Part shown: positions 1-52,187 of the stretch, one piece after another
Layout of the letters: every line of letters starts with the position of its first letter
Numbering within the stretch: the stretch's first letter is position 1
NCBI GenBank assembly: GCA_964427615.1
Contig: CAYRUR010000002.1
Coordinates: forward strand, 81,847-145,846
Source of the DNA: an uncultured Gammaproteobacteria bacterium
GTDB lineage: Bacteria > Patescibacteriota > Microgenomatia > Levybacterales > GWA1-39-11
Direction: 5' to 3'
Length of the DNA: 64,000 bases
Notes under the pieces: model-generated
Told to the model about the DNA's origin: nothing
Seen by the model: only the letters and a program-made list of their open reading frames with translations
The model's database searches: none
Translations under genes and position numbers: made by a program

Positions 1-196
1 GAATTCGGTTATCTTTCTTTTCAACGTGTCCCTCAATTTTTGATACAGAGCCAGAACCATAAAGGTGAAGGTGAAACTCGGGAACACTAACATTTCTATG
101 CTCAACTTTTTGTTTAACGAACAAGCCGATAATTGTAACTGTAACTCCAACGACCCTAATAAGAATCTCAATTAGGTTAAGCGATATGTTTTCCAT
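1..196 (-). CDS. hypothetical small membrane protein, N-terminal portion only (gene runs off the window start)
   Basis: ATG at 196-194 on minus strand opens a frame with no stop down to position 1; translation MENISLNLIEILIRVVGVTVTIIGLFVKQKVEH... contains a hydrophobic helix; absent from ORF track because no stop codon in window. Confidence 0.25.
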   Translation of the reverse strand, partial: MENISLNLIEILIRVVGVTVTIIGLFVKQKVEHRNVSVPEFHLHLYGSGSVSKIEGHVEKKDNRI

Positions 197-423
197 AAGC
201 TAAGCTTCTTTTATAATTTTTTTTAAATTTTCTTACCTGTATCTTCTATCTCCACACTTATTAACTTTTGTTGCTTTCAACTTATACTAAAAATATGTCA
301 AGCAATCAATACTTGAGAGCTCAATCTTACTACAATACTTCTATACAGAAGTGTGCTTAAAACGTTATTAGAAATTGAAATCAGCAAAATTAACTCAACC
401 AATAGCAGTTGCTCTTTATAAAA

Positions 424-497
424 TGCTATACTGAAATAGAGATGGGTAAGAAATCGAAAATTGCTGTTTTTGTCTTTATTGCCATTGATATACAACA
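424..497 (+). repeat. copy 1 of ~73-bp direct repeat: duplicated cyoA promoter (TGcTATACT) plus first 18 codons; 442-504 encodes remnant MGKKSKIAVFVFIAIDIQQS-stop
   Basis: near-identical (1 indel, 1-2 mismatches) to 5645-5718 at the real cyoA start; read directly from sequence. Confidence 0.8.
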
Positions 498-533
498 ATC
501 TTAAGAATACCCCTTTTAATAACACTCCTACAC

Positions 534-1736
534 TTAGACAATTTCCTTCAGAACCTCAATAAATCTATCAATTTCATCTTCAGTGTTATAAAAATGAAGA
601 CTCACCCGTACAGAATCATTTAGTTGATCACCACTCCCTGTGCAATGTGTACCAGTACGCACATACATGTTGTTGCTGTCTAGAATAAAACCAACTTCCT
701 GTGAAACCATATTTTCAATATTGAACGCAATAATGCCATAACCAACTGCGCATCTACAAAATGCAATTCCAGGCAAGAATTCAACTTTATCTAAAGCTCT
801 TAATTTTCCGAGTAAATATTGGCTCAAATGTACTATTCGCTCTTGAATCTTCTCAATTGAAACTTCGTTAATAAAATCTATTGCTTTACCGAGTGAAATA
901 ATTCCAGCAAGATTTTCTGTTCCACCTTCCAAAAGATAGGGTAACTTCTTATAGGTAGTATTTGGTATATCAGATACAGTAGTTCCTCCGCCAACCAAAA
1001 ATGGATAAATTTGATCATGTATTCTTTGATTGATCCATAGAACACCTATTCCTGTTGATGCAAACATCTTATGACCTGAAAAACTAACAAAGTCTACTCC
1101 TAACTCTTGAACGTTCACTGGAATATGACCAATACTTTGAGCAGCATCAAGAGAGATTAAAATATCCTTCCTAGTCTTTTCTCTTATCACCTCAACATCA
1201 GTTTTGACACCATACACATTGTGAACGTGGGTTAGTGCAATAAGACGAGTTTTTTCCGTAACCTTTGATAAAACGTCTTCAACGTTTGCATCTCCTGCTG
1301 AAGTATTTTTGAAAGGAACAATTTTTATCTGGATACCAAATGTTTCTAAGGTGTTTTTAAGATTTATCCAAGGTAATACGTTAGAATCATGGTCTTCAAA
1401 ACAAACCATAATTTCATCATCTTTTTTCAGGTTATGTAATCCCCAAGAATATGCGACAGTATTAAGACTCGCTGTTGCACCTAAGGTAAAAATAACTTCA
1501 TCACAAGAGTTTGCATTAATAAAGTCTTTAACTTTTTCTCTTACTTGTTCAACCTCTCGTGTTACCTTATTGGCAATTACATAGCTACCCCGACCAGCAT
1601 TTGCACAGTATTCTGTAAAATATTTATTGATAGCATCTATTACTACTTTTGGCTTTTGAGTTGTTGAAGCATTGTCAAAATAAATGACCTCTGGATTTGA
1701 TACAAAAAATGGAAATTGATCTTTAAGATTCTGCAT
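534..1736 (-). CDS. class V aminotransferase-fold cysteine desulfurase (SufS/CsdA-like)
   Basis: 400 aa; PLP-lysine motif SGHKM, catalytic-loop Cys in RTGTHCTGS, overall SufS-like architecture; 14-nt overlap with upstream gene. Confidence 0.8.
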   Translation of the reverse strand: MQNLKDQFPFFVSNPEVIYFDNASTTQKPKVVIDAINKYFTEYCANAGRGSYVIANKVTREVEQVREKVKDFINANSCDEVIFTLGATASLNTVAYSWGLHNLKKDDEIMVCFEDHDSNVLPWINLKNTLETFGIQIKIVPFKNTSAGDANVEDVLSKVTEKTRLIALTHVHNVYGVKTDVEVIREKTRKDILISLDAAQSIGHIPVNVQELGVDFVSFSGHKMFASTGIGVLWINQRIHDQIYPFLVGGGTTVSDIPNTTYKKLPYLLEGGTENLAGIISLGKAIDFINEVSIEKIQERIVHLSQYLLGKLRALDKVEFLPGIAFCRCAVGYGIIAFNIENMVSQEVGFILDSNNMYVRTGTHCTGSGDQLNDSVRVSLHFYNTEDEIDRFIEVLKEIV

Positions 1737-3072
1737 TATGTAATTCTCCTATTTTTGCAGGCTTAACTTTTTCTAAAGACAACCCTGCGTCTCTCCATGC
1801 AACAATTCCACCTTCAAGATTATGAGCGTGATAACCTTTGGATTGCAGATACACAACATATTTTTTTGATTGTTCACCAACTGGACAGATAAATAAGACA
1901 GCCTGCTCTTCACAAAAAGGCATATTCCCATCTAATATTTTCACCAAATGTTCTTGAGGAATGTTAATTGATCCTTTTATGTGGGCTGTCTTAAAAGCTA
2001 AATTTGAACGAATATCTATAATGATTGGATTGTGTTCCTTAATCCATTCCTGGACATTTTCTAAGTTTACAGCCGGAGCTTCTAGGCATTGTTCTTCTGT
2101 AATATTTGCAATGCTATCAACTTTGGTTTTTTCACCAAAAACTTCGGGTTTTCGCTCCTTTATATAAGAAATATAGTATTCAAATCTGTCACAAGCAACG
2201 AAAACAGCAGTCTTTTTTTCAGTAAGTTGTGAATCTATCTTCTTAAGATATTGCAGAGTACCTTCAAATGATGCTCCACTCGTTGGCCCTGCTAAAATTC
2301 CACATTGTCTGATAAGAGTTAACATGGCATCAATTGACCTTCTTGAGTCTACCTCTTCTATAGATTCATAAAATTCTTTATCAAAAAGACCTACTTCCCA
2401 CATTTCAGTAATGGTTCTAATTCCTGGAATGTAGTCGTCTGCTGATGAAACAATGCCTACACTTATAAGCTCAGGATTTTGTTTTTTCATATACATTGCT
2501 GTTCCTCGTGTAGACCCTGTTGTTCCAAGTCCTCCAAAGAAGTAATCAACTTTGCTTAAATCATCAGTAATTTCCTTACCTGTAGTTGCATAATGAACCT
2601 CAATGTTTTTTTCATTTGTATATTGGGTTGTGTAATAATACTTATCTTGATTTTGCGTAACAATATTGTCTATATAAGTAAGAGGATCATTTGGATCTGT
2701 AGGGTCAGGACATTCACTTTTCCCAGGAAGCTGTTCTATCTCTGCTCCCATAACTTGTAAGATTGCTTTTACCTCTGGAACTTTAATCCTATTGGTAATT
2801 GTCTTAAAGGGAATACCATAAATTGAGGCAATTGCTTGCAAGACTTTAGCTGTATTCCCACTTGATGATTCAAGAATTGTTTGATTCTTTTCTTTAATAC
2901 TTTGAAGGTCATCTTTAATCATTGCCCAACCAATCCTATCTTTTACTGACCCAAAGGGATTATAAAACTCAAGTTTTGCATATAGGTCAATATTCTTGAG
3001 ACCATGTACTTTGGGGTCAATTTTAAGAAGTGGTGTATTTCCAATCAATTCAGTTATATGTTGATAAATCAT
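1723..3072 (-). CDS. cysteine synthase/cystathionine-beta-synthase family PLP enzyme (fold type II) fused to C-terminal rhodanese domain
   Basis: 449 aa; GSVKDRIG PLP-lysine motif and SSGNTAKV glycine-rich loop of CysK/CBS family; C-terminal ~100 aa with rhodanese active-site Cys (CPVGEQS); start ATGA overlaps stop of next gene. Confidence 0.75.
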   Translation of the reverse strand: MIYQHITELIGNTPLLKIDPKVHGLKNIDLYAKLEFYNPFGSVKDRIGWAMIKDDLQSIKEKNQTILESSSGNTAKVLQAIASIYGIPFKTITNRIKVPEVKAILQVMGAEIEQLPGKSECPDPTDPNDPLTYIDNIVTQNQDKYYYTTQYTNEKNIEVHYATTGKEITDDLSKVDYFFGGLGTTGSTRGTAMYMKKQNPELISVGIVSSADDYIPGIRTITEMWEVGLFDKEFYESIEEVDSRRSIDAMLTLIRQCGILAGPTSGASFEGTLQYLKKIDSQLTEKKTAVFVACDRFEYYISYIKERKPEVFGEKTKVDSIANITEEQCLEAPAVNLENVQEWIKEHNPIIIDIRSNLAFKTAHIKGSINIPQEHLVKILDGNMPFCEEQAVLFICPVGEQSKKYVVYLQSKGYHAHNLEGGIVAWRDAGLSLEKVKPAKIGELHNAES

Positions 3073-4517
3073 AGTTGTTCCTCCAGAAGGTAGGGATTGT
3101 ACTGTTCATCTTCAAACCATAAGAACTTATTGTTCCTCTTCACAACTGCTATTTTTTTTGCTATTTGCTGTTGAATAGTTGCAGATTCTGTAAAATCCAT
3201 ATTGTAGGCAGCAGTATTTACAAAAATTACCAAATCTCCAACCTCAGGAAGTTGTCTTATAAAAGTTTTATGTTTGTAGATAAAATCACTCTCAAGACAT
3301 AAGTTACCAATAAAATAAACCCCATAATCTCCTTCTTCCTTAGTTATATTTTTGTAGATGATAATCGGATCAAGCATCATTTCCTGATCAGTGGAGGCTA
3401 AATTTGAGCGATTCATATCCAATCCAATTAGAATTTCACCTTGAGGAGACTCTTTAACAAAATTTACTTTTGCAATGGTAATACCTGCTTGATTTAATAA
3501 TGATCTTCCTGGTTCAATAACAAGCTGCATCATTATTTCACTGAGAACATCTCCTGCTGATAGATTGTCGTATGAGGAAAGTTTGGTAGATAAAATCTCG
3601 TCTAAATATTCTGCTCCTGCTTGTTTTGTGAAATATTCATAAAAATTAGTAGCTCCCCTAATAACATTGCCCTCATTTCTAAATCCAAAGTTTGTATTAT
3701 GCCAAGTAATTGATGGAATCTTTCCTAAAGCTGCTTGTTGCAAGCTACCTATAAAATCTGTCCACTCTTTTTCATCTGCTATATAGCATATTTTAAAACC
3801 TCCACCAATATTTATAATCTGAGGATTTAACCCAACTTCTTGAAACTTTTCTAGCATTTGGATTAAATTTTCTAATGCAATTGTCTTCTCTTGAGGTGTA
3901 TTTGCATCAAGGTGATAAGAAAAACCTTGAAAGTTAAAAACCTTCCGATTCTCAAGCAGCATATTAGTAACTTTCTTATAGTCTTTAATATCTATCCCAA
4001 ATCTAGAATCTTTTGGAACTATTTTTGTATCTTCCGAACTAAAACCGCCAAAACGAATGAGCGTTTTTACTGATTCTTTATGTTTAATCTTTTTATGTAA
4101 AAGAATAATTTGTTCTAATTCAGAAAAGTTATCAACTTGAATTAGACACCTTTGTTGGATTGCAAGTAATAAGAAAGCTAGATTCTTAGGCCCAGTTACT
4201 TCTATTTCTCCTCCTTGATAACCACTGGCTAAAGCATCTATTAATTCTTTTTCTGATGCAGCATCAATTAGTATTCCTTCATAGTGGGCTTGCTTAACAA
4301 AAGCTTTGGATTTATTAGCTTTGTGAGCATAATAAATCTTTCCTTTTAAGTGGTGTTTTTCAAATATCTGCTGTAAAGATGCTATATTATCACTCAATTT
4401 CTCAGGAAAAATTATATTCAAAGGAGAACCAAAACAATTCAGGAGTGTAGTAATAGTTGATTGCTCATTTATGAATTCCTTAACGAGAGGATCAAGAATA
4501 GGAGTTAATTTGATCAT
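3069..4517 (-). CDS. PLP-dependent decarboxylase, fold III (Orn/DAP/Arg decarboxylase family 2)
   Basis: 482 aa; YAHKAN PLP-lysine motif, GGGF and EPGRSL motifs typical of group IV decarboxylases. Confidence 0.7.
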   Translation of the reverse strand: MIKLTPILDPLVKEFINEQSTITTLLNCFGSPLNIIFPEKLSDNIASLQQIFEKHHLKGKIYYAHKANKSKAFVKQAHYEGILIDAASEKELIDALASGYQGGEIEVTGPKNLAFLLLAIQQRCLIQVDNFSELEQIILLHKKIKHKESVKTLIRFGGFSSEDTKIVPKDSRFGIDIKDYKKVTNMLLENRKVFNFQGFSYHLDANTPQEKTIALENLIQMLEKFQEVGLNPQIINIGGGFKICYIADEKEWTDFIGSLQQAALGKIPSITWHNTNFGFRNEGNVIRGATNFYEYFTKQAGAEYLDEILSTKLSSYDNLSAGDVLSEIMMQLVIEPGRSLLNQAGITIAKVNFVKESPQGEILIGLDMNRSNLASTDQEMMLDPIIIYKNITKEEGDYGVYFIGNLCLESDFIYKHKTFIRQLPEVGDLVIFVNTAAYNMDFTESATIQQQIAKKIAVVKRNNKFLWFEDEQYNPYLLEEQL

Positions 4518-4519
4518 AG

Positions 4520-5476
4520 TTACTTCTGGGGATATTGAAAAGTAACATCAATTTGGTCAGAAATATCTCCATATGCATTAACTATGTAATCTTGGGCAAC
4601 ATATTTTTTATGTAACTCATGGAGTAAATGAAGCTTCTTTTCTCTATCCTCACCTTTCCTTTCTATTAGCTCAACAATTCTCTCAAACAATGCCAACTCT
4701 TGCTCTGATAGAATAGCGATGTCTAATGGAATATCTTGTTGTCTAGCTTGTTTAATTTCCCTCTTCAGCATAAATCCGCCTAGTAACTTATCACCAATCT
4801 TTTGTTTCAAATATTCTAAATCAGCCTCATCTTCTATCTTATTTCCAACTACGTAGAGATTTTCACCTACTCCTGCGTCTTTTGCTAATTGCATGTATTG
4901 TTCATAGACAGAAGTCCCTTCAGGAGTAGGTTCAATTACTAATATTATTGCATCAAACTGTGCATGAAGTGTATTTGAGAATGCATCTGTACCAGCAACC
5001 ATGTCAGATACAATCCACTCATCTTTTTTAAGAACAGTGTGGGAAAGAATATTTTCAAAAATTGCTAAATTTGTATGATAGCAAGCTGTACCAATTTCAT
5101 CACTATCATACGTTCCTACAAACATGTAATAGCCATTATCGGCAAATTTGTGAGCAAATTTTTTTATTAAGTAATCTTCTTTATCTATACTAACTAGACT
5201 TGAACCTTTTCCAGGAGGAGTTGTTTTAACAATGTGTTTATAATCTTTAATTCTATTATTATCCCCTTTTAAGTGCTTACGGATTAATGCGACATTACTA
5301 TGTTCAGATAGAGCAAGATCAGGGTTACGTTCTATACCAAGTAATCCTGAAACATGGATATTAATATCGGCATCAATCGCTAAAACCGTCTTATTATTTC
5401 TAAGTAAGTACTGGATAAATAAGGAAGTAGTTGTACTTTTTCCAGATCCACCTTTTCCAACAAATGCTATTTTCAT
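4520..5476 (-). CDS. SIMIBI-class P-loop NTPase (MinD/ParA/CooC/NifH-like deviant Walker A)
   Basis: Walker A VGKGGSGKSTT; likely start MKIAFVGKGG at 5476 (track ORF extends to 5539); 2-nt gap to upstream decarboxylase stop. Confidence 0.6.
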   Translation of the reverse strand: MKIAFVGKGGSGKSTTTSLFIQYLLRNNKTVLAIDADINIHVSGLLGIERNPDLALSEHSNVALIRKHLKGDNNRIKDYKHIVKTTPPGKGSSLVSIDKEDYLIKKFAHKFADNGYYMFVGTYDSDEIGTACYHTNLAIFENILSHTVLKKDEWIVSDMVAGTDAFSNTLHAQFDAIILVIEPTPEGTSVYEQYMQLAKDAGVGENLYVVGNKIEDEADLEYLKQKIGDKLLGGFMLKREIKQARQQDIPLDIAILSEQELALFERIVELIERKGEDREKKLHLLHELHKKYVAQDYIVNAYGDISDQIDVTFQYPQK

Positions 5477-5627
5477 AACTATAAATGCAATAGAATTGCA
5501 TTTAGTATATGCGAGTGACTCGCATTTGTCAATCCACAAACAGTTAAAACATTCCGAATAAATCTAAATAATTAAGTTGATCTCTGCTTTGAATGTTCCA
5601 ACGGATAAATTCATAAAGGGGATTGTA

Positions 5628-5656
5628 TTCAAATGGTTTCTACAAAATGCTATACT
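5628..5656 (+). promoter_or_regulatory. putative sigma70-type promoter of cyo operon: -35-like TTCAAA (5628-5633), extended -10 TGcTATACT (5648-5656); ATG only 8 nt downstream, so mRNA is leaderless or near-leaderless
   Basis: sequence inspection; no Shine-Dalgarno room before ATG at 5665. Confidence 0.45.
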
Positions 5657-5718
5657 GAATAGAGATGGGTAAGAAATCGAAAATTGCTGTTTTTGCCTTT
5701 ATTGCCATTGATGTACTT
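5645..5718 (+). repeat. copy 2 of ~73-bp direct repeat (native cyoA promoter and 5-prime end)
   Basis: matches 424-497. Confidence 0.8.
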
Positions 5719-6591
5719 CTAGTACTATGGCTCCTGCTTCATGATGCTACATTCCCCGTTCTGCATCCGAATGGTGCCATAGCCATACAAGAGCGGAATC
5801 TTTTTGTCTTTGCCATAGTGCTGGCACTTAGCATTATTCTTCCGGTATTTATCATGACTGCCATTATTGTCATGCGCTATCGTAAAGGAAATACCAAGGC
5901 CTCCTATACCCCCAACTGGAATCGTAACAGAAAATTGGAGGTTCTCTGGTGGATTATTCCCAGCACTATTATCTTTATCCTGGCTGTTGTTACCTGGTAC
6001 ACAACCCATGCACTTGATCCATACAAGCCACTTGCTAGTAACACTAAGCCTATGACCATTCAGGTAGTAGCTCTGCAATGGAAATGGCTTTTTATCTACC
6101 CTGAACAAAATATTGCTACGGTAAATTATGTGGTGTTTCCTGAAAAAACACCGCTCACGTTTGAACTCACAGCAGACGCACCCATGAATTCACTGTGGAT
6201 CCCTCATCTGGGTGGACAGCTCTATGCTATGGCAGGTATGGTTACAAAGCATCACTTAATGGCCAATGAAACTGGTGAATTCCCAGGCTCATCTGCTGAG
6301 ATCAGCGGAGAAGGATTTGCGAGTATGCGCTTTACCGCCAAAGCAACAACAAGCGAAGAATTCGAGCAATGGGTAGAGTCAGTCAAGTCTACTGCTACCC
6401 CCCCACTTGATCAAGCCACATATGATACGTTGGCAAAACCAAACACCCATCCTTCTCCTACCTTTTATGCATCAGTCGAGAAGGATATGTATAATAAAAT
6501 AGTCATGAAGTATAAGCCTTCTAACAACATGCCACAGAATCACAAGATGAACAACGATACATCCATGCCATCAAGTCCTGAGATGCACTGA
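5665..6591 (+). CDS. cyoA: cytochrome bo3-type quinol oxidase subunit II
   Basis: 308 aa; two N-terminal TM helices; region NSLWIPHLGGQLYAMAGMVTKHHLMANETGEFPGSSAEISGEGFASMRF closely parallels E. coli CyoA and lacks the CuA Cys ligands (quinol, not cytochrome c, oxidase). Confidence 0.85.
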   Translation: MGKKSKIAVFAFIAIDVLLVLWLLLHDATFPVLHPNGAIAIQERNLFVFAIVLALSIILPVFIMTAIIVMRYRKGNTKASYTPNWNRNRKLEVLWWIIPSTIIFILAVVTWYTTHALDPYKPLASNTKPMTIQVVALQWKWLFIYPEQNIATVNYVVFPEKTPLTFELTADAPMNSLWIPHLGGQLYAMAGMVTKHHLMANETGEFPGSSAEISGEGFASMRFTAKATTSEEFEQWVESVKSTATPPLDQATYDTLAKPNTHPSPTFYASVEKDMYNKIVMKYKPSNNMPQNHKMNNDTSMPSSPEMH

Positions 6592-6599
6592 TAATTACT

Positions 6600-8573
6600 A
6601 TGCAAGAACTTATTTTTGGAAGATTAACACTTGAAGCACTACCCCATGAGTGGTTCACCATAGGCGGAACAGCTACCGTTATGGGCATGGGAGTAGCAAT
6701 TGCCCTTTTCTTAACCTACACCAAACGCTGGAAATGGCTTTGGAATGAGTGGCTCACTAGCGTAGACCCTAAAAAAATCGGCATCATGTACATCATTGTT
6801 GCTTTTCTGATGTTTGTACGCGGTGGTCTTGATGCTGTCATGATATGGCTTCAGCAGGCACTAGCAAGCGGAGCAGCAACCGGATATCTTACCCCAGATC
6901 ATTTCCAACAGATTTTTACAGCACATGGCAACATCATGGTCTTTTTTGTTACCATGGGTTTTTTGTCCGGACTCCTGAACCTAATTGTGCCCCTGCAGAT
7001 AGGAGCACGTGATGTTGCCTACCCGTTATTAAATACCCTGAGCTTTTGGCTGTATGTAGCAGGTGCAATTTTTGTCAATCTTTTCTTCGTAGTTGGAGGA
7101 GAATTTTCTGCTGTAGGGTGGCTAGCAGTCGCGCCTCTTTCAGGGCCTGAGTATAGTCCTGGTGTTGGTGTCGATTACTGGATTTGGACACTGCAATTAT
7201 CAGGACTTGGAACCATTCTAGCTGGTATTAACTTCTTAGTTACCATTCTTAAAATGCGTGCTCCTGGTATGAGCCTCATGAAAATGCCAATCTTTACCTG
7301 GACTTCACTCTTAAGCATGATCTTGGTGCTCACTGTCTTCCCAATACTGGGCGCAACCACCCTTCTTTTATTTTTAGATCGCTTTTTAGGTATGCACTTA
7401 TTTACTTCAGGTTTTGGAGGAGATCCTATGATGTACGTCAACCTCATCTGGATGTGGGGACATCCTGAAATTTACATTTTAATTCTGCCTGTATTTGGCA
7501 TTTATTCAGAAGTTGTAGCAACCTTTTCACAAAAGCGAATTTTTGGCTATACCTCAACTATGCTCGCTTCAGCAGGAGTTATGCTACTCTCCATGTTAGT
7601 CTGGCTACACCACTTCTTCACTATGGGAGCAGGTGCAAGCGTTAATACTTTTTTTGGTATTATTACTATGCTCATTGCCATTCCAACTGGCGTACAAATA
7701 TTTAACTGGCTCACTACCATGTTTCGCGGAAAAATTGTACTTGCCACTCCTATGTACTGGTTCTTAGGGTTTATCAGTACCTTCTCACTGGGAGGAGTTA
7801 CTGGCGTTATGCTAGGAGTTCCTGGAATTGACTTTCAAGTCCACAACTCTCTTTTTCTGGTTGCGCATTTTCATACCATGGTTATTGGTGGTGCTCTCTT
7901 TGGTATTTTTGCAGGCTTTACGTATTGGTTTCCAAAGATTATGGGTTTTCGGCTCCATGAACGACTTGGCAAATATGCTTTCTGGTGCTGGATTGTCGGC
8001 TTTTTTACTTCCTTTGTACCGCTCTATATCCTAGGACTCATGGGAGCTACGAGAAGACTCGATCACTACACTGACCCTTCCTGGCAGCCACTATTTATCG
8101 TGTCACTTATTGGCAGCATTATTATTACCTGTGGGGTTTTCCTTCAGATATTGCAAATTATTGTAAGTATCAGACAACGCAAGCAACTTGTTGATACAAC
8201 AGGAGATCCTTGGAATGGACGCACCCTGGAATGGTCAACACCTTCTCCTGTCCCCCATTACAACTTTGCTGTTATACCTGCCGTGCAGAGCCGTGATGCA
8301 TTTTGGGAAATGAAATCCTCTCAAGGTGAGCATTCCAAAAACAGAAACATCCAATACAAAGATTTTCACATGCCCAAAAATACGGCAGCAGGAATTTATA
8401 TCTCAGGCTTTCTCTTTCTTCTAGGATTTGCTTTTGTCTGGCATATTATGTGGCTGGTTGTGGCAAGTATCATAGGAGCAATTGCTTGCTTTGTCGTCCG
8501 TGCATTTGATGAAAATACTGAATATGTAGTAACAGCTGAGGAAGTTGAGAAAATGGAAAAGAAATTAGTATAA
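6600..8573 (+). CDS. cyoB: quinol oxidase subunit I (heme-copper oxidase catalytic subunit)
   Basis: 657 aa, 12+ TM helices, HPEIYILILP and WLHHFFTMG motifs. Confidence 0.9.
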   Translation: MQELIFGRLTLEALPHEWFTIGGTATVMGMGVAIALFLTYTKRWKWLWNEWLTSVDPKKIGIMYIIVAFLMFVRGGLDAVMIWLQQALASGAATGYLTPDHFQQIFTAHGNIMVFFVTMGFLSGLLNLIVPLQIGARDVAYPLLNTLSFWLYVAGAIFVNLFFVVGGEFSAVGWLAVAPLSGPEYSPGVGVDYWIWTLQLSGLGTILAGINFLVTILKMRAPGMSLMKMPIFTWTSLLSMILVLTVFPILGATTLLLFLDRFLGMHLFTSGFGGDPMMYVNLIWMWGHPEIYILILPVFGIYSEVVATFSQKRIFGYTSTMLASAGVMLLSMLVWLHHFFTMGAGASVNTFFGIITMLIAIPTGVQIFNWLTTMFRGKIVLATPMYWFLGFISTFSLGGVTGVMLGVPGIDFQVHNSLFLVAHFHTMVIGGALFGIFAGFTYWFPKIMGFRLHERLGKYAFWCWIVGFFTSFVPLYILGLMGATRRLDHYTDPSWQPLFIVSLIGSIIITCGVFLQILQIIVSIRQRKQLVDTTGDPWNGRTLEWSTPSPVPHYNFAVIPAVQSRDAFWEMKSSQGEHSKNRNIQYKDFHMPKNTAAGIYISGFLFLLGFAFVWHIMWLVVASIIGAIACFVVRAFDENTEYVVTAEEVEKMEKKLV

Positions 8574-8699
8574 AGTATGAAGAAGTAAGTATTAAGTATG
8601 GAATTAAGAACAGTAGACAGTATACGGAAAACAGAGAAAAAATTTAGAATTTCGAATTTAGTATTTAGAATTTAAAATTAACAAGTTTAGTTATTAACT
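8574..8699. repeat. intergenic low-complexity repeat region (gaattaag/taagta units; contains 21-nt exact inverted match to 38588-38608)
   Basis: 8643-8663 tttagaatttcgaatttagta is exact reverse complement of 38588-38608. Confidence 0.6.
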
Positions 8700-9329
8700 A
8701 TGTCTTTAACAAAAATTGAAACGATACAATTAAATAAAGTAAGTGAACACGAAAAAGCAGAGGATAAATCTTTATTTGGTTTCTGGATATACCTCATGAC
8801 AGACTTGATTATGTTTGCTGTCTTTTTTGCAACGTATGCAGTACTGCATGGAAATACTTTTGGCGGACCATCAGCTAAAGAACTTTTTAGCCTCCCTTTT
8901 GCACTCACCGAAACCATCATTTTGCTTACCAGTAGTTTTACCTGTGGACTCGGTATATTGTTTGCACGAGACAACGACAAGCAAAAAACACTGCTCTTCT
9001 TTTTTCTTACCTTTCTTTTAGGAATTGCATTTTTGGGTATGGAATTAGTGGAGTTTTCCTCCTTACTGCATGAAGGACATGGATTTGGAGAAAGTGCTTT
9101 TCTCTCATCATTTTTTACGCTTGTGGGAGCGCATGGTCTGCATATTGCATCTGGTCTGATATGGCTTGGTATCTTACTGGTTTTTGTTGTAAAACGAGGG
9201 CTTACCCCTAGTATGCTTCGCAAACTAACACTTTTGAGTATTTTCTGGCATTTTTTGGATCTTGTCTGGATCTTTATTTTTACCATTGTATACTTAATGG
9301 GAGCCATGCCAAGCACAGGAGCAATGTAG
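8700..9329 (+). CDS. cyoC: quinol oxidase subunit III
   Basis: 209 aa, Cox3-like helices, GMELVEF...HGLHIASG motif; the overlapping 223-aa minus-strand ORF is rejected. Confidence 0.85.
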   Translation: MSLTKIETIQLNKVSEHEKAEDKSLFGFWIYLMTDLIMFAVFFATYAVLHGNTFGGPSAKELFSLPFALTETIILLTSSFTCGLGILFARDNDKQKTLLFFFLTFLLGIAFLGMELVEFSSLLHEGHGFGESAFLSSFFTLVGAHGLHIASGLIWLGILLVFVVKRGLTPSMLRKLTLLSIFWHFLDLVWIFIFTIVYLMGAMPSTGAM

Positions 9330-9332
9330 CAT

Positions 9333-9746
9333 ATGCAAACAACACATTCAAAAAACAATCAAATCAATAATAAAAGAAAAATCATCTTATCCTACGTTAC
9401 TGGTTTTCTGTTATCACTTATCCTAACCCTGACTGCCTACACCCTAGTCATTCTGCATCAGGGCTCATATCAAAGCATCTTTTCCTCCAACTCTCTTCTT
9501 ATTTTTATCCTGATTCTTGCCGTTATCCAACTAATAGTACAACTCCTCTTCTTCCTGCATTTAAGTCAAGAGAGAAAACCCTACTGGAACTCTGTCTTTC
9601 TCATTTCCACAGTGGGAATTATCCTCATTGTTGTTGTTGGCTCTATCTGGATTATGAGCAATCTGAGATACAACATGATGCCCCCTTCCTTAATGGATGA
9701 GCACATGATGCATGAGGAAGGAATATACCTGCAAAAAACACCCTAA
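9333..9746 (+). CDS. cyoD: quinol oxidase subunit IV
   Basis: 137 aa, three TM helices, position directly after cyoC. Confidence 0.7.
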   Translation: MQTTHSKNNQINNKRKIILSYVTGFLLSLILTLTAYTLVILHQGSYQSIFSSNSLLIFILILAVIQLIVQLLFFLHLSQERKPYWNSVFLISTVGIILIVVVGSIWIMSNLRYNMMPPSLMDEHMMHEEGIYLQKTP

Positions 9747-9760
9747 TCTTATCCATTACT

Positions 9761-10627
9761 ATGCTTCTTTCTATTAAAAAATACTATTCACTCACCAAAC
9801 CAGGCGTTTTATATGGCAACGTGCTGACTGGTGTTGCTGGTTTTTTACTGGCCAGTCGAGGCAACTTTGACTTTCTCTTGTTCTTGGCCACTATTATGGG
9901 TATGTCATTTGTTATTGCCTCTGCTTGTGTACTCAATAACTATCTGGATAAAGATATTGATAGCATTATGGAGAGAACCAAAAAAAGAGCCACTGCAAAC
10001 GGCAGCGTTGCAGGAAAAAATGCTGTCACTTTTTCTACTTTCTTGGGGTTGTTAGGATTTTTGATTTTATTCTTTTATACCAACTGGCTCGTGGTAGGTA
10101 TTGGTATCGTTGGCTTTATTGACTATGTACTGTTGTATGGTATGTTATCCAAAAGGCTATCAGTACATGGGACACTCGTGGGCAGCATCTCTGGTGCTAT
10201 GCCTATTCTTGCTGGTTATACTGCAGTAACCGGTACACTTGATATGGGAGCCATATTAGTTTTTCTCATTCTTTTCTTCTGGCAAATGCCTGAGTTTTAT
10301 TCTATTGCTATCTATCGCAGAGATGAATATAAAGCAGCAGGTATTCCGGTGGTATCAGTAGTAAAAGGAATACACAATACAAAAATGCAGATATTCTTCT
10401 ACACGTTTGCTTTTGTAACAACAACTATTCTTCTGAGTTTATTTGGGTACACGGGATATAGTTATCTACTCGTTATGCTGTTACTTGGACTGTATTGGTT
10501 GTGGCTTGCTGTAAAAGGTTTTCGGACAGCAGATGTAAATAAGTGGGCACGTCAGATGTTTCGCTTCTCACTCGTTATGTTATTGGTATTCTGTCTTATG
10601 ATTTCAATAGATGTACTTTTACCATAA
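9761..10627 (+). CDS. cyoE: protoheme IX farnesyltransferase (heme O synthase, UbiA family)
   Basis: 288 aa polytopic; NNYLDKDIDSIMERTKKRA UbiA-type aspartate-rich motif; operon position. Confidence 0.85.
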   Translation: MLLSIKKYYSLTKPGVLYGNVLTGVAGFLLASRGNFDFLLFLATIMGMSFVIASACVLNNYLDKDIDSIMERTKKRATANGSVAGKNAVTFSTFLGLLGFLILFFYTNWLVVGIGIVGFIDYVLLYGMLSKRLSVHGTLVGSISGAMPILAGYTAVTGTLDMGAILVFLILFFWQMPEFYSIAIYRRDEYKAAGIPVVSVVKGIHNTKMQIFFYTFAFVTTTILLSLFGYTGYSYLLVMLLLGLYWLWLAVKGFRTADVNKWARQMFRFSLVMLLVFCLMISIDVLLP

Positions 10628-49260: not shown

Positions 49261-50058
49261 TTACTTCTTATTAACAATAAGGGAAAGAAGAAAAAGAAAA
49301 AGAGCTATCAAAACAATAGATCCTCCTGCTGCCAAATCAAAGTAAAAGGACATAACTACACCACTTATCACAGAAAAAATAGAAATAATCTCAGCAATTA
49401 CAATGGTGTGCAAGAAATCTTTTTTAAATTGTAAAGCAGTAATAACCGGAATAACGACCAGTGCGGAGATGAGCAAAACACCAAGAATAGGAATAGCCAG
49501 AGCGACCGTAAGTGCTGCTAGAATAATAAAGAGAATATTAATAAAGGTTACCGGAATTCCACCAACACGTGCTGATTGTTCGTCAAAAGATACATATACC
49601 AACTCTTTAAAAAACGCCACTACCAACCCGATTATGACAATTCCTAAAATTGCAATACGCACGACATCTGTTTCTCTCACCGCTAAAATGCTACCGAACA
49701 AAAAATTAAAAAGATTTGTATTAAATCCATTGGCAAAGCCTATCAAAACAACTGCCACCGCAAGGCTTCCTGATAGAAAAATAGATAGTGCTGATTCTCC
49801 ATATACTCGTTTGGAAATACGCAATCGTTCAATAGCCACTGATGAAAAAACAGCGGCAATCATCGCAGTAAGCACTGGACTTACACCCAGTAAAAGCCCT
49901 ATAGCTACACCTGCCAATGACACATGAGAAAGAGTGTCAGCAATCAGCGAATAACGACGCAATACCAGAAAAATACCGATAAGAGGAGCAATTACTCCTA
50001 TCACGAGTCCTGCTTGAAGTCCTCTAATAATAAAATCGTATGCAAAAATATCAATCAT
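49261..50058 (-). CDS. metal (Zn/Mn) ABC transporter permease
   Basis: 265 aa polytopic; operon with ATPase and SBP. Confidence 0.75.
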   Translation of the reverse strand: MIDIFAYDFIIRGLQAGLVIGVIAPLIGIFLVLRRYSLIADTLSHVSLAGVAIGLLLGVSPVLTAMIAAVFSSVAIERLRISKRVYGESALSIFLSGSLAVAVVLIGFANGFNTNLFNFLFGSILAVRETDVVRIAILGIVIIGLVVAFFKELVYVSFDEQSARVGGIPVTFINILFIILAALTVALAIPILGVLLISALVVIPVITALQFKKDFLHTIVIAEIISIFSVISGVVMSFYFDLAAGGSIVLIALFLFLLSLIVNKK

Positions 50059-50822
50059 AATATATGTGGACCCGCTACATATTTAATATCTCTTCCATAC
50101 AACTTTTCCAGATAATTCCCTTTTACAAATGTTTCAGTCGCACCATGATACACTAATGTTTGGTTAATACAGGCAATTTCCGTAACCTCATTTGCGACAA
50201 CTCCTATATCATGAGAAACCAAGACTAATGTGAGGTTTAACTTTTGATTCAATTTTCTCAATAAAGTATAAAAGTCTATTTGATTTTTCACATCTACTCC
50301 TGCTGTGGGCTCATCCAGAAAAATAATTTCCGGTTCTCCTGCTAAAGCACGTGCAATGAAAACTCTCTGCTGCTGACCACCGGACAAATCACCTATTCTT
50401 CTCTTAGCAAATTCCTGCATTTCCACTTGTTCCAAAGACCGGTCTATAATTTTTCTATCTTCTTGCGTCAACCAATGAAACAAACCTTTTTTGGCATACC
50501 GTCCCATGGCAACCACTTCTTCAACAGTAATAGGAAATCGGGAATCAAAATTGTGAAATTTTTGAGGAATATAGCCTAATTTTGATTTATCTTTAAATCG
50601 ATTAATAGGTTGTCCAAAGAGTTTTATCTCTCCTTCCTTTATAGGTAAAAGACCTAGTATGAGTCTTAACAAGGTTGACTTTCCTCCTCCGTTGGGGCCG
50701 ATAATTCCTAAGTAATCTCCTCTATGAATTGCAAAAGAGATATCTTTTAACACCAACTCTTTGGCATAAGAAAAAGAGATATGAGAAATTTCTATGATAT
50801 TTTCTGAATGATCTAGTTGCAT
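50055..50822 (-). CDS. metal ABC transporter ATP-binding protein
   Basis: Walker A GPNGGGKST, signature LSGGQQQR. Confidence 0.85.
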   Translation of the reverse strand: MQLDHSENIIEISHISFSYAKELVLKDISFAIHRGDYLGIIGPNGGGKSTLLRLILGLLPIKEGEIKLFGQPINRFKDKSKLGYIPQKFHNFDSRFPITVEEVVAMGRYAKKGLFHWLTQEDRKIIDRSLEQVEMQEFAKRRIGDLSGGQQQRVFIARALAGEPEIIFLDEPTAGVDVKNQIDFYTLLRKLNQKLNLTLVLVSHDIGVVANEVTEIACINQTLVYHGATETFVKGNYLEKLYGRDIKYVAGPHIL

Positions 50823-51736
50823 ACCAACGCCTTTTCTAAATTCGCAAGATTAGCTTCCATGATAGTGAAATAATTTTCACCTTTTGCTTCATCTTCTGGT
50901 GTGAGTCCTTCAGCCGGATTTAAAACCAATGTTTCTACTCCTGTCTCTTGAGCTAGAGTTTGAGAAAATCGTGGACTTGTTAACTCTTCGAAAAAAATAT
51001 ACTTTACCTGCTTTTCCCGCACAAATGTTGCTAATTCAGCCAATTTTCGTGCAGAAGGCTCTTCTTCAGGACTCAGGCCTGAGATAGCCACTTGATTCAA
51101 ATTATATTCCTGAGCTAAATAACCAAAGGCTGCATGAGCGGTTACGATATCTCGTTTTTGACAAGTCGCAAGACCTTGTCTGTACGCACTATCCAACTCC
51201 TGCAAGGAAGCAATTAGTTCATCTGCATTTTTTTGATAGTAAGAAGCGTTTTTCGGATCTTCTTTTTTGAAAGCTTCTGCAATAATTGCCACTTGATGCT
51301 GCGCAAGCTCTGGACTAAGCCATACATGAGGATCAGTACTATGCTCTGCAAAAAGATTTTCATTTATCACAAGCACCTCAACATCCTTGCCTATCAAATT
51401 TTTTTGCATTGCAGGTGCCCAGACCTCAATATGACCATTCAGTAATAGAAGATCACTATGCTGTATCTTTACCACGTCTTGCGTTGTTGGCTCAAATTCA
51501 TGCGCCTCCACTCCTGCCGGAGTAATATTAATAACATGAGCATGATCACCCCCAACTACAGAGGCAAAATAATAGAGAGGGTATAAAGAAGTAACAACAT
51601 CTATTTTTCCTGTGTTACTGGAGTTATTACTCTTCTGAAGCAATAATTGTCCACCAAAAGTAAAGACAAAAACTGCGAAAACAATAACAATAAGCAAGAT
51701 AAGAATTCCTTTATTTTTAACTTTCATTCCTGACAC
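50813..51736 (-). CDS. metal ABC transporter substrate-binding protein (ZnuA/cluster A-I family)
   Basis: 307 aa; HVWLSP motif, signal anchor. Confidence 0.75.
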   Translation of the reverse strand: MSGMKVKNKGILILLIVIVFAVFVFTFGGQLLLQKSNNSSNTGKIDVVTSLYPLYYFASVVGGDHAHVINITPAGVEAHEFEPTTQDVVKIQHSDLLLLNGHIEVWAPAMQKNLIGKDVEVLVINENLFAEHSTDPHVWLSPELAQHQVAIIAEAFKKEDPKNASYYQKNADELIASLQELDSAYRQGLATCQKRDIVTAHAAFGYLAQEYNLNQVAISGLSPEEEPSARKLAELATFVREKQVKYIFFEELTSPRFSQTLAQETGVETLVLNPAEGLTPEDEAKGENYFTIMEANLANLEKALVCN

Positions 51737-52146
51737 CTTTCACAAACTCCAAAAAATTCTAATGAGTGACGCTTTACTAAAAAGTTTTTTTCCTGTTCTA
51801 CATTTTTTTCAAAATCTTCCACAACACAATCTGCAATATCCTGAATTGTTCCACATACTTCACAAATCAGATGATGGTGATCGGGTCTTCCAGCTAACTC
51901 ATACCTGAATTTTCCCTCATACAGCTGAATTTGTTTTGCCAGCCCTTTATCCGTAAAAGCATTGATAATACGAAAAACAGTTGCTTGATCCACCTGAATA
52001 TCATTTTTCTGCAGATGCTCTTTTATCATTGAGACATCAACAGGATTATCTGTTTTTTCCAAATATTTAAGAACTGCAATACGTGCAGGAGTCGCACGCA
52101 AAGATATTTCTTTTAACTCCCTTCGACAATCGTGTCTATTTTTCAT
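51724..52146 (-). CDS. Fur-family metalloregulator (Zur-like)
   Basis: 140 aa; HHHLICEVCG...CERC. Confidence 0.75.
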   Translation of the reverse strand: MKNRHDCRRELKEISLRATPARIAVLKYLEKTDNPVDVSMIKEHLQKNDIQVDQATVFRIINAFTDKGLAKQIQLYEGKFRYELAGRPDHHHLICEVCGTIQDIADCVVEDFEKNVEQEKNFLVKRHSLEFFGVCERCQE

Positions 52147-52187
52147 CCTATCTGGACTATATCACACATGCAAGTAAGTTGCAATAA

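Follow-up and report, generated by a model that had tools for sequence, protein, structure and literature searches.

A conserved decarboxylase and PALP-rhodanese gene cassette that may serve metal starvation

The CysM enzyme of the Mycobacterium tuberculosis CysM-CysO-Mec system is supplied with sulfur by a carrier protein instead of free sulfide. The known zinc starvation responses comprise importers, zinc-free paralogues, COG0523 chaperones and a few metallophores (ethylenediamine disuccinate, hereafter EDDS, staphylopine and pseudopaline). COG0523 proteins have been discussed as candidate metallochaperones of Zur regulons (PMC6103462). Clusters of the EDDS type carry a signature of cysteine-synthase-like, diaminopimelate (DAP)-decarboxylase-like and ornithine-cyclodeaminase genes (PMC13206832), and aspergillomarasmine A (AMA) is a natural product that chelates zinc (PMC8829947, PMC8319579). 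Here we describe a four-gene cassette at positions 534–5476 of a 64,000-nucleotide stretch (hereafter referred to as the window) of contig CAYRUR010000002.1, from a bacterium of the Patescibacteriota lineage. It encodes a SufS-like cysteine desulfurase, a fusion of a PALP enzyme with a rhodanese domain, a pyridoxal phosphate (PLP)-dependent decarboxylase and a P-loop ATPase. Our leading, still tentative, reading sees in it a module for metal starvation, most likely of the zinc/Zur type, that would make a cysteamine-type ligand.

All four genes lie on the minus strand and are arranged, in the direction of transcription, as ATPase (4520–5476), decarboxylase (3069–4517), PALP-rhodanese fusion (1723–3072) and desulfurase (534–1736). 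The first-pass annotation of this DNA had described them as a single, translationally coupled operon, and the junctions are as tight as it claimed: the ATPase and decarboxylase genes are separated by 2 nt (4518–4519), the decarboxylase and fusion genes share an ATGA overlap (3069–3072), and the fusion and desulfurase genes overlap by 14 nt (1723–1736). Mechanical calling of open reading frames (ORFs) extends the ATPase frame to a TTG at position 5539. The gene truly begins at the ATG at position 5476, because the public gene call likewise gives a protein of 318 residues, because M1 is kept in at least 95% of 41 homologues, and because the promoter and operators described below fall within the longer mechanical frame. 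The cassette and its surroundings contained no tRNA genes, no Rfam families and no terminator-like site.

To assess the conservation of this arrangement, we scanned one genome per species with the fusion protein as query, which returned 589 relatives; the best 80 loci were kept (designated by L numbers where needed), and neighbouring genes were counted within 8 kb on each side of each locus. The 80 loci span several classes of Patescibacteria, Melainabacteria/Obscuribacterales, Firmicutes, Actinomycetes (Streptomyces, Nocardia, Actinoplanes, Micromonospora, Kitasatospora and Cellulomonas), Bdellovibrionota, Verrucomicrobia, Ktedonobacteria, Bryobacterales and Nanohaloarchaea; reduced genomes, such as those of Patescibacteria, Dojkabacteria and Nanohaloarchaea, are among the carriers. 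A decarboxylase gene was present in 78 of the 80 loci, the other two being cut by contig ends, and it stood directly upstream of the fusion gene on the same strand in 76. The desulfurase was found in 70 loci and the CooC-like ATPase in 27. Because of the 76/80 adjacency, the decarboxylase and the fusion form the invariant core of the cassette, to which the desulfurase is a very frequent third and the ATPase a lineage-dependent fourth member. The grouping is beyond chance, as the gene order is conserved across many phyla, and the four genes are not the scattered relatives of lysA, cysK, sufS and minD that would have spoken against a functional unit.

In two loci the core is duplicated. The Ktedonobacteria locus L023 (5533–9281) has a PALP copy lacking the rhodanese domain directly before the fusion gene, and the Bdellovibrionota locus L051 (6559–9323 and 11262–13944) has two complete decarboxylase-fusion pairs on opposite strands. 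By analogy with AMA synthase, which performs two successive additions, such duplications could mean the same here.

Residue conservation was scored at a cut-off of at least 95% of 41–71 homologues, depending on the protein (41 for the ATPase, 60 for the desulfurase). By this measure the PLP lysines, the rhodanese cysteine and the SufS cysteine are all kept. None of the four proteins reached an NCBIfam equivalog cut-off, and the 12 kb inspected around the cassette contained neither sufBCDE nor cysE, in agreement with the earlier view that this is not the housekeeping cysteine or SUF arrangement. We rejected a housekeeping reading on the sub-cut-off scores of all four proteins and the cross-phylum gene order. 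Our literature search likewise found no paper on this combination of genes, which had been put forward as not being a described pathway.

The sigma-70-type promoter of the cassette, TTGACA-17-TATACT (5504–5532, minus strand), matches the consensus at 11 of 12 positions and is the best site within positions 1–6000 of the window. Its spacer contains operator box I, ATGCGA-N5-TCGCAT (5509–5525), a perfect palindrome, TGCGAGTGACTCGCA, that is unique in the window and a variant of box II, ATGCAA-N5-TTGCAT (5485–5501), which lies 8 nt before the ATPase ATG. The two boxes are spaced by 24 nt, as are those of locus L086. The exact motif WTGCAA-N5-TTGCAW occurs twice in the 64 kb, against an expectation of 0.09, and two occurrences were obtained in none of 100 shuffles. 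The second operator copy, ATGCAAGTAAGTTGCAA (52168–52184), is located directly upstream of a gene for a Fur-family regulator, a putative Zur of 140 residues with an HHH motif and two CxxC pairs (51724–52146, minus strand). The adjoining segment (49261–51736, minus strand) encodes a znuA-znuC-znuB-type ABC importer, as identified by tblastn with the genes of locus L002.

L002, at 70% identity, and L086 are the closest relatives of the window cassette. In the window the fur-znuACB unit is 46 kb away from the cassette; in L002 and L086 the two are contiguous, with the unit directly after the desulfurase gene, and the box precedes both the cassette and the fur-znu unit. The Fur-family protein of the window is 45% identical to that encoded directly after the L002 cassette, and the L002 promoter has the same TTGACA-box-TATACT architecture. 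The same box was found upstream of the cassette in L054, L056, L082, L086 and L002. A survey of 1.37 Mb from related loci turned up 11 exact boxes, of which 10 stood at cassette or fur/znu promoters, the carriers of these 10 being Patescibacteria, Dojkabacteria, Alkaliphilus, a metagenome-assembled genome (MAG) of the Eubacteriales and Limisphaerales. Other lineages have TGAAAATnATTTTCA-type palindromes at the equivalent position; in a Streptomyces example, such a palindrome lies between the divergent znuA and decarboxylase genes. We take the TGAAAATnATTTTCA boxes to be Zur-like.

The binding protein of the window importer has as its best PDB matches Bacillus subtilis YcdH (E 6e-66) and the zinc-binding lipoprotein AdcA, and its ligand positions are His/His/His/Glu; manganese-type proteins score far lower. 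The layout is that of a Zur regulon: a Fur-family gene stands next to a ZnuABC importer of the zinc type, and the operator in front of it recurs before the cassette, with which the importer is probably co-regulated. NCBIfam assigned no metal (iron, zinc, nickel or peroxide class) to the Fur-family regulators and was ambiguous for some of the binding proteins. Zinc appears to be the best reading of the metal, because the binding protein is YcdH/AdcA-like with the His3Glu ligand set and because COG0523 genes recur as neighbours of the cassette.

L002 (5435–5599) and L086 (7670–7834) also have a conserved ORF of 54 codons (MKFYNVKTRKSVDVPDNDVEVVTMKNGKKAAKA...LRLSK) that separates the boxed promoter from the ATPase gene. 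This ORF is followed by a strong hairpin, has no Pfam match and is missing from the window, in which the operators are followed at once by the ATPase gene. A leader or attenuator function is conceivable for it, as is a role as a small protein of the zinc regulon.

Metal-linked genes recur around the cassette in other genomes. Genes of the Fur, Znu, COG0523, HMA or ArsR families were found in 42 of the 80 loci, the remaining 38 having no metal-linked neighbour. Fur-family regulators accounted for 24 loci and ArsR-family regulators for 5; ZnuA, ZnuB and ZnuC families were recurrent (ZnuA in 10 and ZnuB in 12 loci by tblastn); COG0523 GTPases (cobW plus CobW_C) adjoined 6 actinomycete loci, and proteins with a heavy-metal-associated (HMA) domain 7 Nocardia loci. 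For instance, a nanohaloarchaeal locus has the order cobW, ATPase, decarboxylase and fusion; in a common gut Firmicute a Fur-family gene opens the operon; Alkaliphilus metalliredigens has a DtxR-type regulator and a ZnuA/ABC-3 transporter upstream and CbiMQO downstream of the cassette; and in Obscuribacterales the cassette is accompanied by a Fur gene, another copy of the ATPase, a regulator of the CsoR/RcnR type and enzymes for tailoring. A NikR_C protein is encoded near the cassette in L087. The first-pass annotation, which had rightly seen a sulfur/PLP operon, had missed this tie to metal starvation, given the shared operator and the metal-gene neighbours.

Two lineages show extended versions of the locus. 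In Obscuribacterales/Melainabacteria (L004–L020 and L085, for example L085 5120–18310), the conserved cluster includes an Asp/Arg beta-hydroxylase-like gene, an FAD amine oxidase gene, a Fur gene, a second CooC-like ATPase gene, two S-adenosylmethionine-dependent methyltransferase genes, an AHSA1 gene, an MFS (BT1) transporter gene and genes for two proteins of unassigned family, one of about 500 residues with a ParB/Srx-like DGNHR motif and another of about 440 residues. This cluster looks like one for a tailored, exported derivative of the core product. In Nocardia (L029–L033, L042 and L068, for example L029 5252–6535), the desulfurase gene lies upstream and is followed by a gene for a protein of about 430 residues ending in a heavy-metal-associated (CxxC) domain; a gene for a Na+/H+ exchanger fused to a zf-UBP zinc finger is found downstream, and these loci have no CooC-like ATPase.

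To examine what the cassette might make, we compared each protein with families of known function. Pfam profiles confirmed every domain named in the first-pass annotation, in all four proteins. The fusion (449 residues) combines a PALP domain (E 1e-48) with a C-terminal, GlpE-like rhodanese domain (E 4.5e-14), as seen with Pfam, NCBIfam and Foldseek. It falls below the NCBIfam cut-offs for cysKM (168 against 344), CysM (158 against 413), cysK (139 against 351) and the SbnA family (TIGR03945, 155.6 against 349.95). It has the PALP fold, the PLP lysine and the SGNT loop that are hallmarks of CysK and CysM, together with the CysM-type motifs IPGIR and CDR; the arginine of IPGIR is presumably the anion-binding Arg210 of Escherichia coli CysM. 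The conserved positions are K44 (the PLP lysine), S70-S71-G72-N73, C121-x-D123-P124, C294-D295-R296 and, in the rhodanese domain, C396-x-x-G399-x-x-S402.

When an AlphaFold2 model of the fusion (mean pLDDT 82) was searched with Foldseek, the four best PDB matches were all AMA synthase structures (8h4q and 8h4h), apo and with O-phosphoserine, aligned over both domains (E 2e-28, about 470 columns, 21–22% identity). CysK, CysM and cystathionine beta-synthase (CBS) ranked after these and aligned with the PALP domain only. The earlier name 'CysK/CBS-rhodanese fusion' was correct as to the PALP and rhodanese domains, but the motifs are of the CysM type and the top structural match is AMA synthase. 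Like that enzyme, the fusion has a PALP domain, a linker and a C-terminal rhodanese-like domain in one chain, and also an insertion loop (residues 115–130, LPGxSECPDPTDPNDP, with an invariant Cys121-x-Asp-Pro). This loop is aligned without a gap in the HMMER alignment with AMA synthase and is absent from CysK, CysM and CBS, CysK and CysM showing a gap in its place. The active-site motifs divide the families differently: the asparagine loop reads SGNT in the bacterial family and in CysK/CysM/CBS and SGST in AMA synthase, the surroundings of the PLP lysine SVKDR in the former two and NVKIM in the latter, IPGIR of the bacterial family and CysM is VPGPR in AMA synthase, and CDR is CCDL. Cys121 is invariant in the bacterial family and absent from AMA synthase, while CysK, CysM and CBS have no loop to hold it. 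The Cys121 loop might serve as a lid, bind a metal or provide a second site for a persulfide.

The desulfurase (400 residues; Aminotran_5, E 6e-103) is a SufS-type (group II) paralogue. It has the PLP lysine and a catalytic cysteine in an RTGxHC-type loop, and all SufS catalytic residues are present; H222-K223, R360, C365 and R377 are conserved. It scores below the SufS cut-offs (TIGR01979, 373.2 against 475.1 bits; PRK09295, 270 against 661). No SUF partner (SufE/SufU or SufBCD) was found in the cassette or the flanking 12 kb, and no SUF gene was a recurrent neighbour among the loci.

The decarboxylase (482 residues) is a fold-III PLP enzyme of the LysA/DokD/BtrK-like type, supported by Pfam (Orn_Arg_deC_N, E 2.6e-21, plus Orn_DAP_Arg_deC), NCBIfam and PDB matches to DAP decarboxylase, D-Orn/D-Lys decarboxylase and BtrK (E 1.4e-9). 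It has the fold-III domains, the PLP lysine and the cysteine of the CxESxD motif that characterise LysA; K66, H202, E335, C407 and D411 are conserved. Its score is below the LysA cut-off (TIGR01048, 135.2 against 297.9), and an insertion of about 55 residues separates its two LysA-matched stretches.

The ATPase (318 residues) belongs to the CbiA/ParA/NifH-type P-loop class of Pfam and has the deviant Walker A motif of MinD proteins, GKGGxGK[ST], in the form GKGGSGKS. Its sole PDB match was CooC1 (3kje, E 1e-9), in which the metal-binding C-Y-C aligns with C-Y-H of the query (Cys132-x-His134). G7-K8-G9-G10-x-G12-K13, C132 and H134 are each kept in at least 95% of the 41 homologues, so that the motif of this family is Cys-x-His and not the Cys-x-Cys of CooC. 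No CO dehydrogenase gene was found in any locus examined. The family is large (1675 members at E<=1e-10) and uncharacterised, its members carrying no annotation beyond 'CO dehydrogenase maturation factor'. As its Cys-x-His aligns with the metal-binding Cys-x-Cys of CooC, the motif points to a putative metallochaperone, in which two subunits would give a Cys2His2 site, typical of zinc. The first-pass annotation had called the protein a MinD/ParA/NifH-type ATPase; the P-loop class stands, and within it the protein is specifically CooC-like. We rejected a generic MinD/ParA ATPase, the sole PDB match being CooC with C-Y-H at the position of its metal motif.

The preferred reading of the cassette, as a zinc-starvation module for a sulfur amine, would work as follows. 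A Fur-family regulator would repress the cassette through the two 6-5-6 operators that overlap its promoter. Upon derepression, the SufS-like enzyme would take the sulfur of cysteine as a persulfide and pass it to Cys396 of the rhodanese domain; the CysM-type PALP domain would make aminoacrylate from O-phospho- or O-acetyl-serine and capture the sulfur, giving a cysteine-type unit, possibly tethered to the rhodanese domain by a disulfide; and the LysA-like enzyme would remove the alpha-carboxylate to leave a thiol with a 2-aminoethyl group, an N,S ligand of the cysteamine type. In some lineages, methyltransferases, GNATs or oxidases might tailor the product. The CooC-like ATPase would dimerise around a Cys2His2 metal site and act as a metal, presumably zinc, chaperone, a role that in other lineages could fall to the COG0523 GTPases or HMA proteins encoded next to the cassette.

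Every reading that involves synthesis shares one scheme, in which a nucleophile X would add to an activated serine and a LysA-type decarboxylation would yield X-CH2-CH2-NH2. We lean towards sulfur as X, somewhat short of calling it probable, because in 70 of 80 loci the fusion is accompanied by a complete, coupled desulfurase, because the rhodanese cysteine is invariant and because the active-site motifs of the PALP domain are CysM-type. A sulfur route is also favoured by the canonical SGNT loop and by the 14-nt overlap between the genes for the desulfurase and the fusion. The relay from SufS through rhodanese to PALP, followed by decarboxylation, which the first-pass annotation had proposed, is still the most likely chemistry, though that proposal had left a nitrogen-based rival unconsidered.

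Several observations weigh against the zinc-and-sulfur reading. Binding proteins of the YcdH/AdcA type are regarded as binders of free zinc, and the window contains no exporter or chelate importer linked to the cassette. The zinc response, the direction of the sulfur flow, the product and the chaperone role are inferred. The metal of the regulator is not readable from its sequence, and the box shares its 6-5-6 form with that of the nickel regulator Nur (PMC2691836). A cysteine unit made with sulfur from cysteine looks circular, unless the tethering holds. Both PALP-rhodanese enzymes characterised so far, AMA synthase and Fda4, make C-N bonds with no sulfur donor (PMC12751119), and AMA synthase keeps a cysteine at the rhodanese position, so that conservation of this cysteine does not discriminate. 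Ten of the 80 loci lack a nearby desulfurase, and only 27 have the ATPase.

The circularity would be removed if the unit were never free, being built and decarboxylated on the rhodanese persulfide. On this speculative extension, which we consider improbable in its entirety, the cassette would specify an undescribed route to a cysteamine-type thiol-amine, with a tethered cysteine unit, tethered decarboxylation, a Zur-controlled zinc ligand as product and the Cys2His2 ATPase as a new class of zinc chaperone. Tethered decarboxylation would avoid the thiazolidine dead-end of free cysteine with PLP, and repeated rounds of beta-replacement and decarboxylation could build chelators of the N-(2-mercaptoethyl)ethylenediamine type.

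The alternative that survives best, a serious rival although we hold it to be unlikely, retains zinc and replaces sulfur with nitrogen: the cassette would make an aminopolycarboxylate or ethylenediamine zincophore of the AMA, toxin A or EDDS type, by joining O-phosphoserine to an amino-acid amine through a C-N bond. The decarboxylase would trim the 2-amino-2-carboxyethyl unit to give an N-(2-aminoethyl) amino acid, perhaps iteratively, with the rhodanese domain being structural and the desulfurase having a side role. This option had been absent from the first-pass annotation, an omission that matters as AMA synthase, a C-N enzyme whose product chelates zinc, is the closest structural relative of the fusion. 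It is the top full-length match and shares with the fusion the insertion loop that CysK, CysM and CBS lack. Nitrogen chemistry also has the better precedent of the two: Fusarium Fda4, which has this domain architecture too, joins O-phosphoserine to L-alanine (PMC12751119), a CysK-like and DAP-decarboxylase-like pair defines the aminopolycarboxylate clusters of antiSMASH (PMC13206832), and EDDS is a Zur-repressed zincophore (PMC9252823, PMC7586795). The ten loci in which the core pair lacks a desulfurase, the FAD amine oxidase and Asp/Arg hydroxylase of the melainabacterial clusters and the tandem fusion or decarboxylase copies of L023 and L051 are consistent with it. However, it leaves no role for a fully catalytic SufS-like enzyme coupled to the fusion in 70 of the 80 loci. 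The bacterial fusion retains SGNT, IPGIR and CDR, which AMA synthase has partly lost, and Cys121 is specific to the bacterial family. When the EDDS-type signature was looked for, its first two genes were present and adjacent, but no ornithine-cyclodeaminase (SbnB/AesB-type) gene was found in any annotated locus.

A zinc-sparing or zinc-mobilising response, in which no ligand is released, seems to us more doubtful than the nitrogen route. In one version SufS and rhodanese would replace the zinc-dependent SufU; in others, remodelling of the cysteine or thiol pool would free zinc (compare ZigA-HutH), or a low-molecular-weight thiol would be made independently of zinc enzymes. The placement of the cassette within a Zur-type regulon, the adjoining COG0523 genes, the retention in reduced genomes (Patescibacteria, Dojkabacteria and Nanohaloarchaea) and the lack of a linked exporter in the window all suit such a response. 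To our knowledge, however, none of the canonical LysA, CysK/CysM and SufS enzymes is a zinc enzyme that could be spared, and the invariant decarboxylase-fusion pairing points to a two-step synthesis; the tailoring genes of Actinomycetes and Melainabacteria, moreover, resemble natural-product clusters. Zinc-independent paralogues, as well as COG0523 chaperones, are classic members of Zur regulons (PMC6103462), which speaks for sparing.

Nickel or cobalt in place of zinc, with a Nur-like regulator, a CooC-like nickel chaperone and a nickel ligand, is a reading we regard as very unlikely. The cassette box does fit the 6-5-6 form of the Streptomyces coelicolor Nur box, tTGCaa-N5-ttGCAA, the nickel site of Nur being formed by His70, His72 and His126 (PMC2691836). 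The sole solved relative of the ATPase, CooC, inserts nickel; CbiMQO follows the cassette in Alkaliphilus, and a NikR_C protein stands near it in L087. Yet the co-regulated importer is of the YcdH/AdcA type with zinc-type His3Glu ligands, COG0523 and Znu genes recur beside the cassette, and the TGAAAATnATTTTCA boxes of other lineages are presumably Zur-like. By eye, with the segment placed without a Nur alignment, the window regulator has no histidine in AKQIQLYEGKFRYEL, the presumed equivalent of the Nur nickel-site sheet (His70 and His72).

A metal-independent secondary-metabolite module for a sulfur amine with a generic MinD/ParA ATPase, which is the first-pass proposal taken literally, fits the domain logic and the 38 of 80 loci lacking a metal-linked neighbour within the flanks, but is scarcely credible beside the shared operator, the metal neighbours in the other 42 loci and the CooC-type metal motif. 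Two further chemistries, one leading to taurine by way of cysteate synthase and a decarboxylase and the other from lanthionine to thialysine, are less favoured because neither explains the metal regulation.

The history of the locus in this genome is partly legible. Direct repeats flank the whole cassette together with its own promoter. The left copy, of about 77 nt (417–493, plus strand), is a truncated, 20-codon relic that carries the -10 region and ribosome-binding site of cyoA together with its first ~17 codons, and the right copy (5641–5716, plus strand) is the functional cyoA 5' region; a 59-nt core of the repeats is 97% identical, with one 1-nt indel. An independent public unitig, L001 (5245 nt), corresponds to window positions 443–5687, so that both its ends lie within the repeats. 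The flanking repeats and these unitig ends suggest that the whole cassette entered the cyoA leader in one piece. Its GC content is 0.34, against 0.35–0.39 across most of the window, and it contains no transposase, integrase or other recombinase gene. The nearest relatives of the cassette are from Patescibacteria MAGs. Divergent from it, at positions 5665–10627, lies a complete operon for a cytochrome bo3-type quinol oxidase (cyoA-D-like genes plus a heme O synthase gene); an aerobic oxidase is unusual in Patescibacteria.

Should the preferred reading be true, the cassette would be a compact and widespread zinc module that joins a sulfur relay, PLP chemistry of the AMA/EDDS kind and a CooC-family ATPase. 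That ATPase may then represent a novel kind of zinc chaperone with a place parallel to that of COG0523, and the odd rhodanese domain of the fungal AMA synthase would gain a bacterial origin and context. Retention in reduced episymbionts (Patescibacteria, Dojkabacteria and Nanohaloarchaea) suggests a role in metal acquisition, and the occurrence of the cassette in cultivable Streptomyces, Nocardia and Alkaliphilus makes these ideas directly testable.

Among described systems, the ATPase resembles CooC, which inserts nickel into CO dehydrogenase, in its deviant Walker A motif and in the metal motif at the CooC dimer interface, but differs in having Cys-x-His, a C-terminal extension of about 80 residues and no CO dehydrogenase partner. 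The COG0523 zinc metallochaperones (ZigA, ZagA and Zng1) adjoin the cassette elsewhere as the ATPase does here, whereas the ATPase is of the MinD family and not a G3E GTPase. With the SufS-SufE/SufU and IscS-rhodanese (ThiI, YnjE and MOCS3) relays the cassette shares a group II desulfurase beside a rhodanese domain with an active cysteine; in contrast to them it lacks SufBCD, SufE and SufU, its acceptor is fused to a PALP enzyme, and its desulfurase stays below the TIGR01979 cut-off. CysM of the CysM-CysO-Mec system is a CysM-type enzyme with protein-borne sulfur and has IPGIR and CDR in common with the fusion, but the carrier here would be a fused rhodanese persulfide instead of a ubiquitin-like thiocarboxylate, and the product would go to a decarboxylase. 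BtrK of butirosin biosynthesis, an L-glutamyl-[BtrI carrier protein] decarboxylase of fold III, provides a precedent for carrier-tethered decarboxylation, although its similarity is weak and tethering in the cassette is hypothetical.

The closest parallels are AMA synthase and the EDDS clusters. AMA synthase and Fusarium Fda4 have the same PALP plus rhodanese-like architecture as the fusion (PMC8829947, PMC12751119), and AMA synthase shares the insertion loop and yields a zinc chelator; both make C-N bonds and lack a partner desulfurase or decarboxylase, whereas the bacterial family, at 21–22% identity to AMA synthase, keeps the CysM-type motifs and has the extra invariant Cys121. The EDDS/EDHA clusters (Amycolatopsis japonicum aes; 'aminopolycarboxylic-acid' in antiSMASH) share the CysK-like and DAP-decarboxylase-like pair (PMC13206832) and are repressed by zinc via Zur (PMC9252823), and the actinomycete cassettes are likewise linked to a metal ABC transporter. 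Judged by published gene content, the cassette differs from them in lacking an ornithine cyclodeaminase, in the rhodanese-fused PALP enzyme, in its SufS-like and CooC-like members and in a distribution far beyond Actinomycetes. What sets the cassette apart from both the EDDS and the AMA systems is a desulfurase in place of the cyclodeaminase, a CooC-like ATPase with Cys-x-His, the CysM motifs and the broad distribution.

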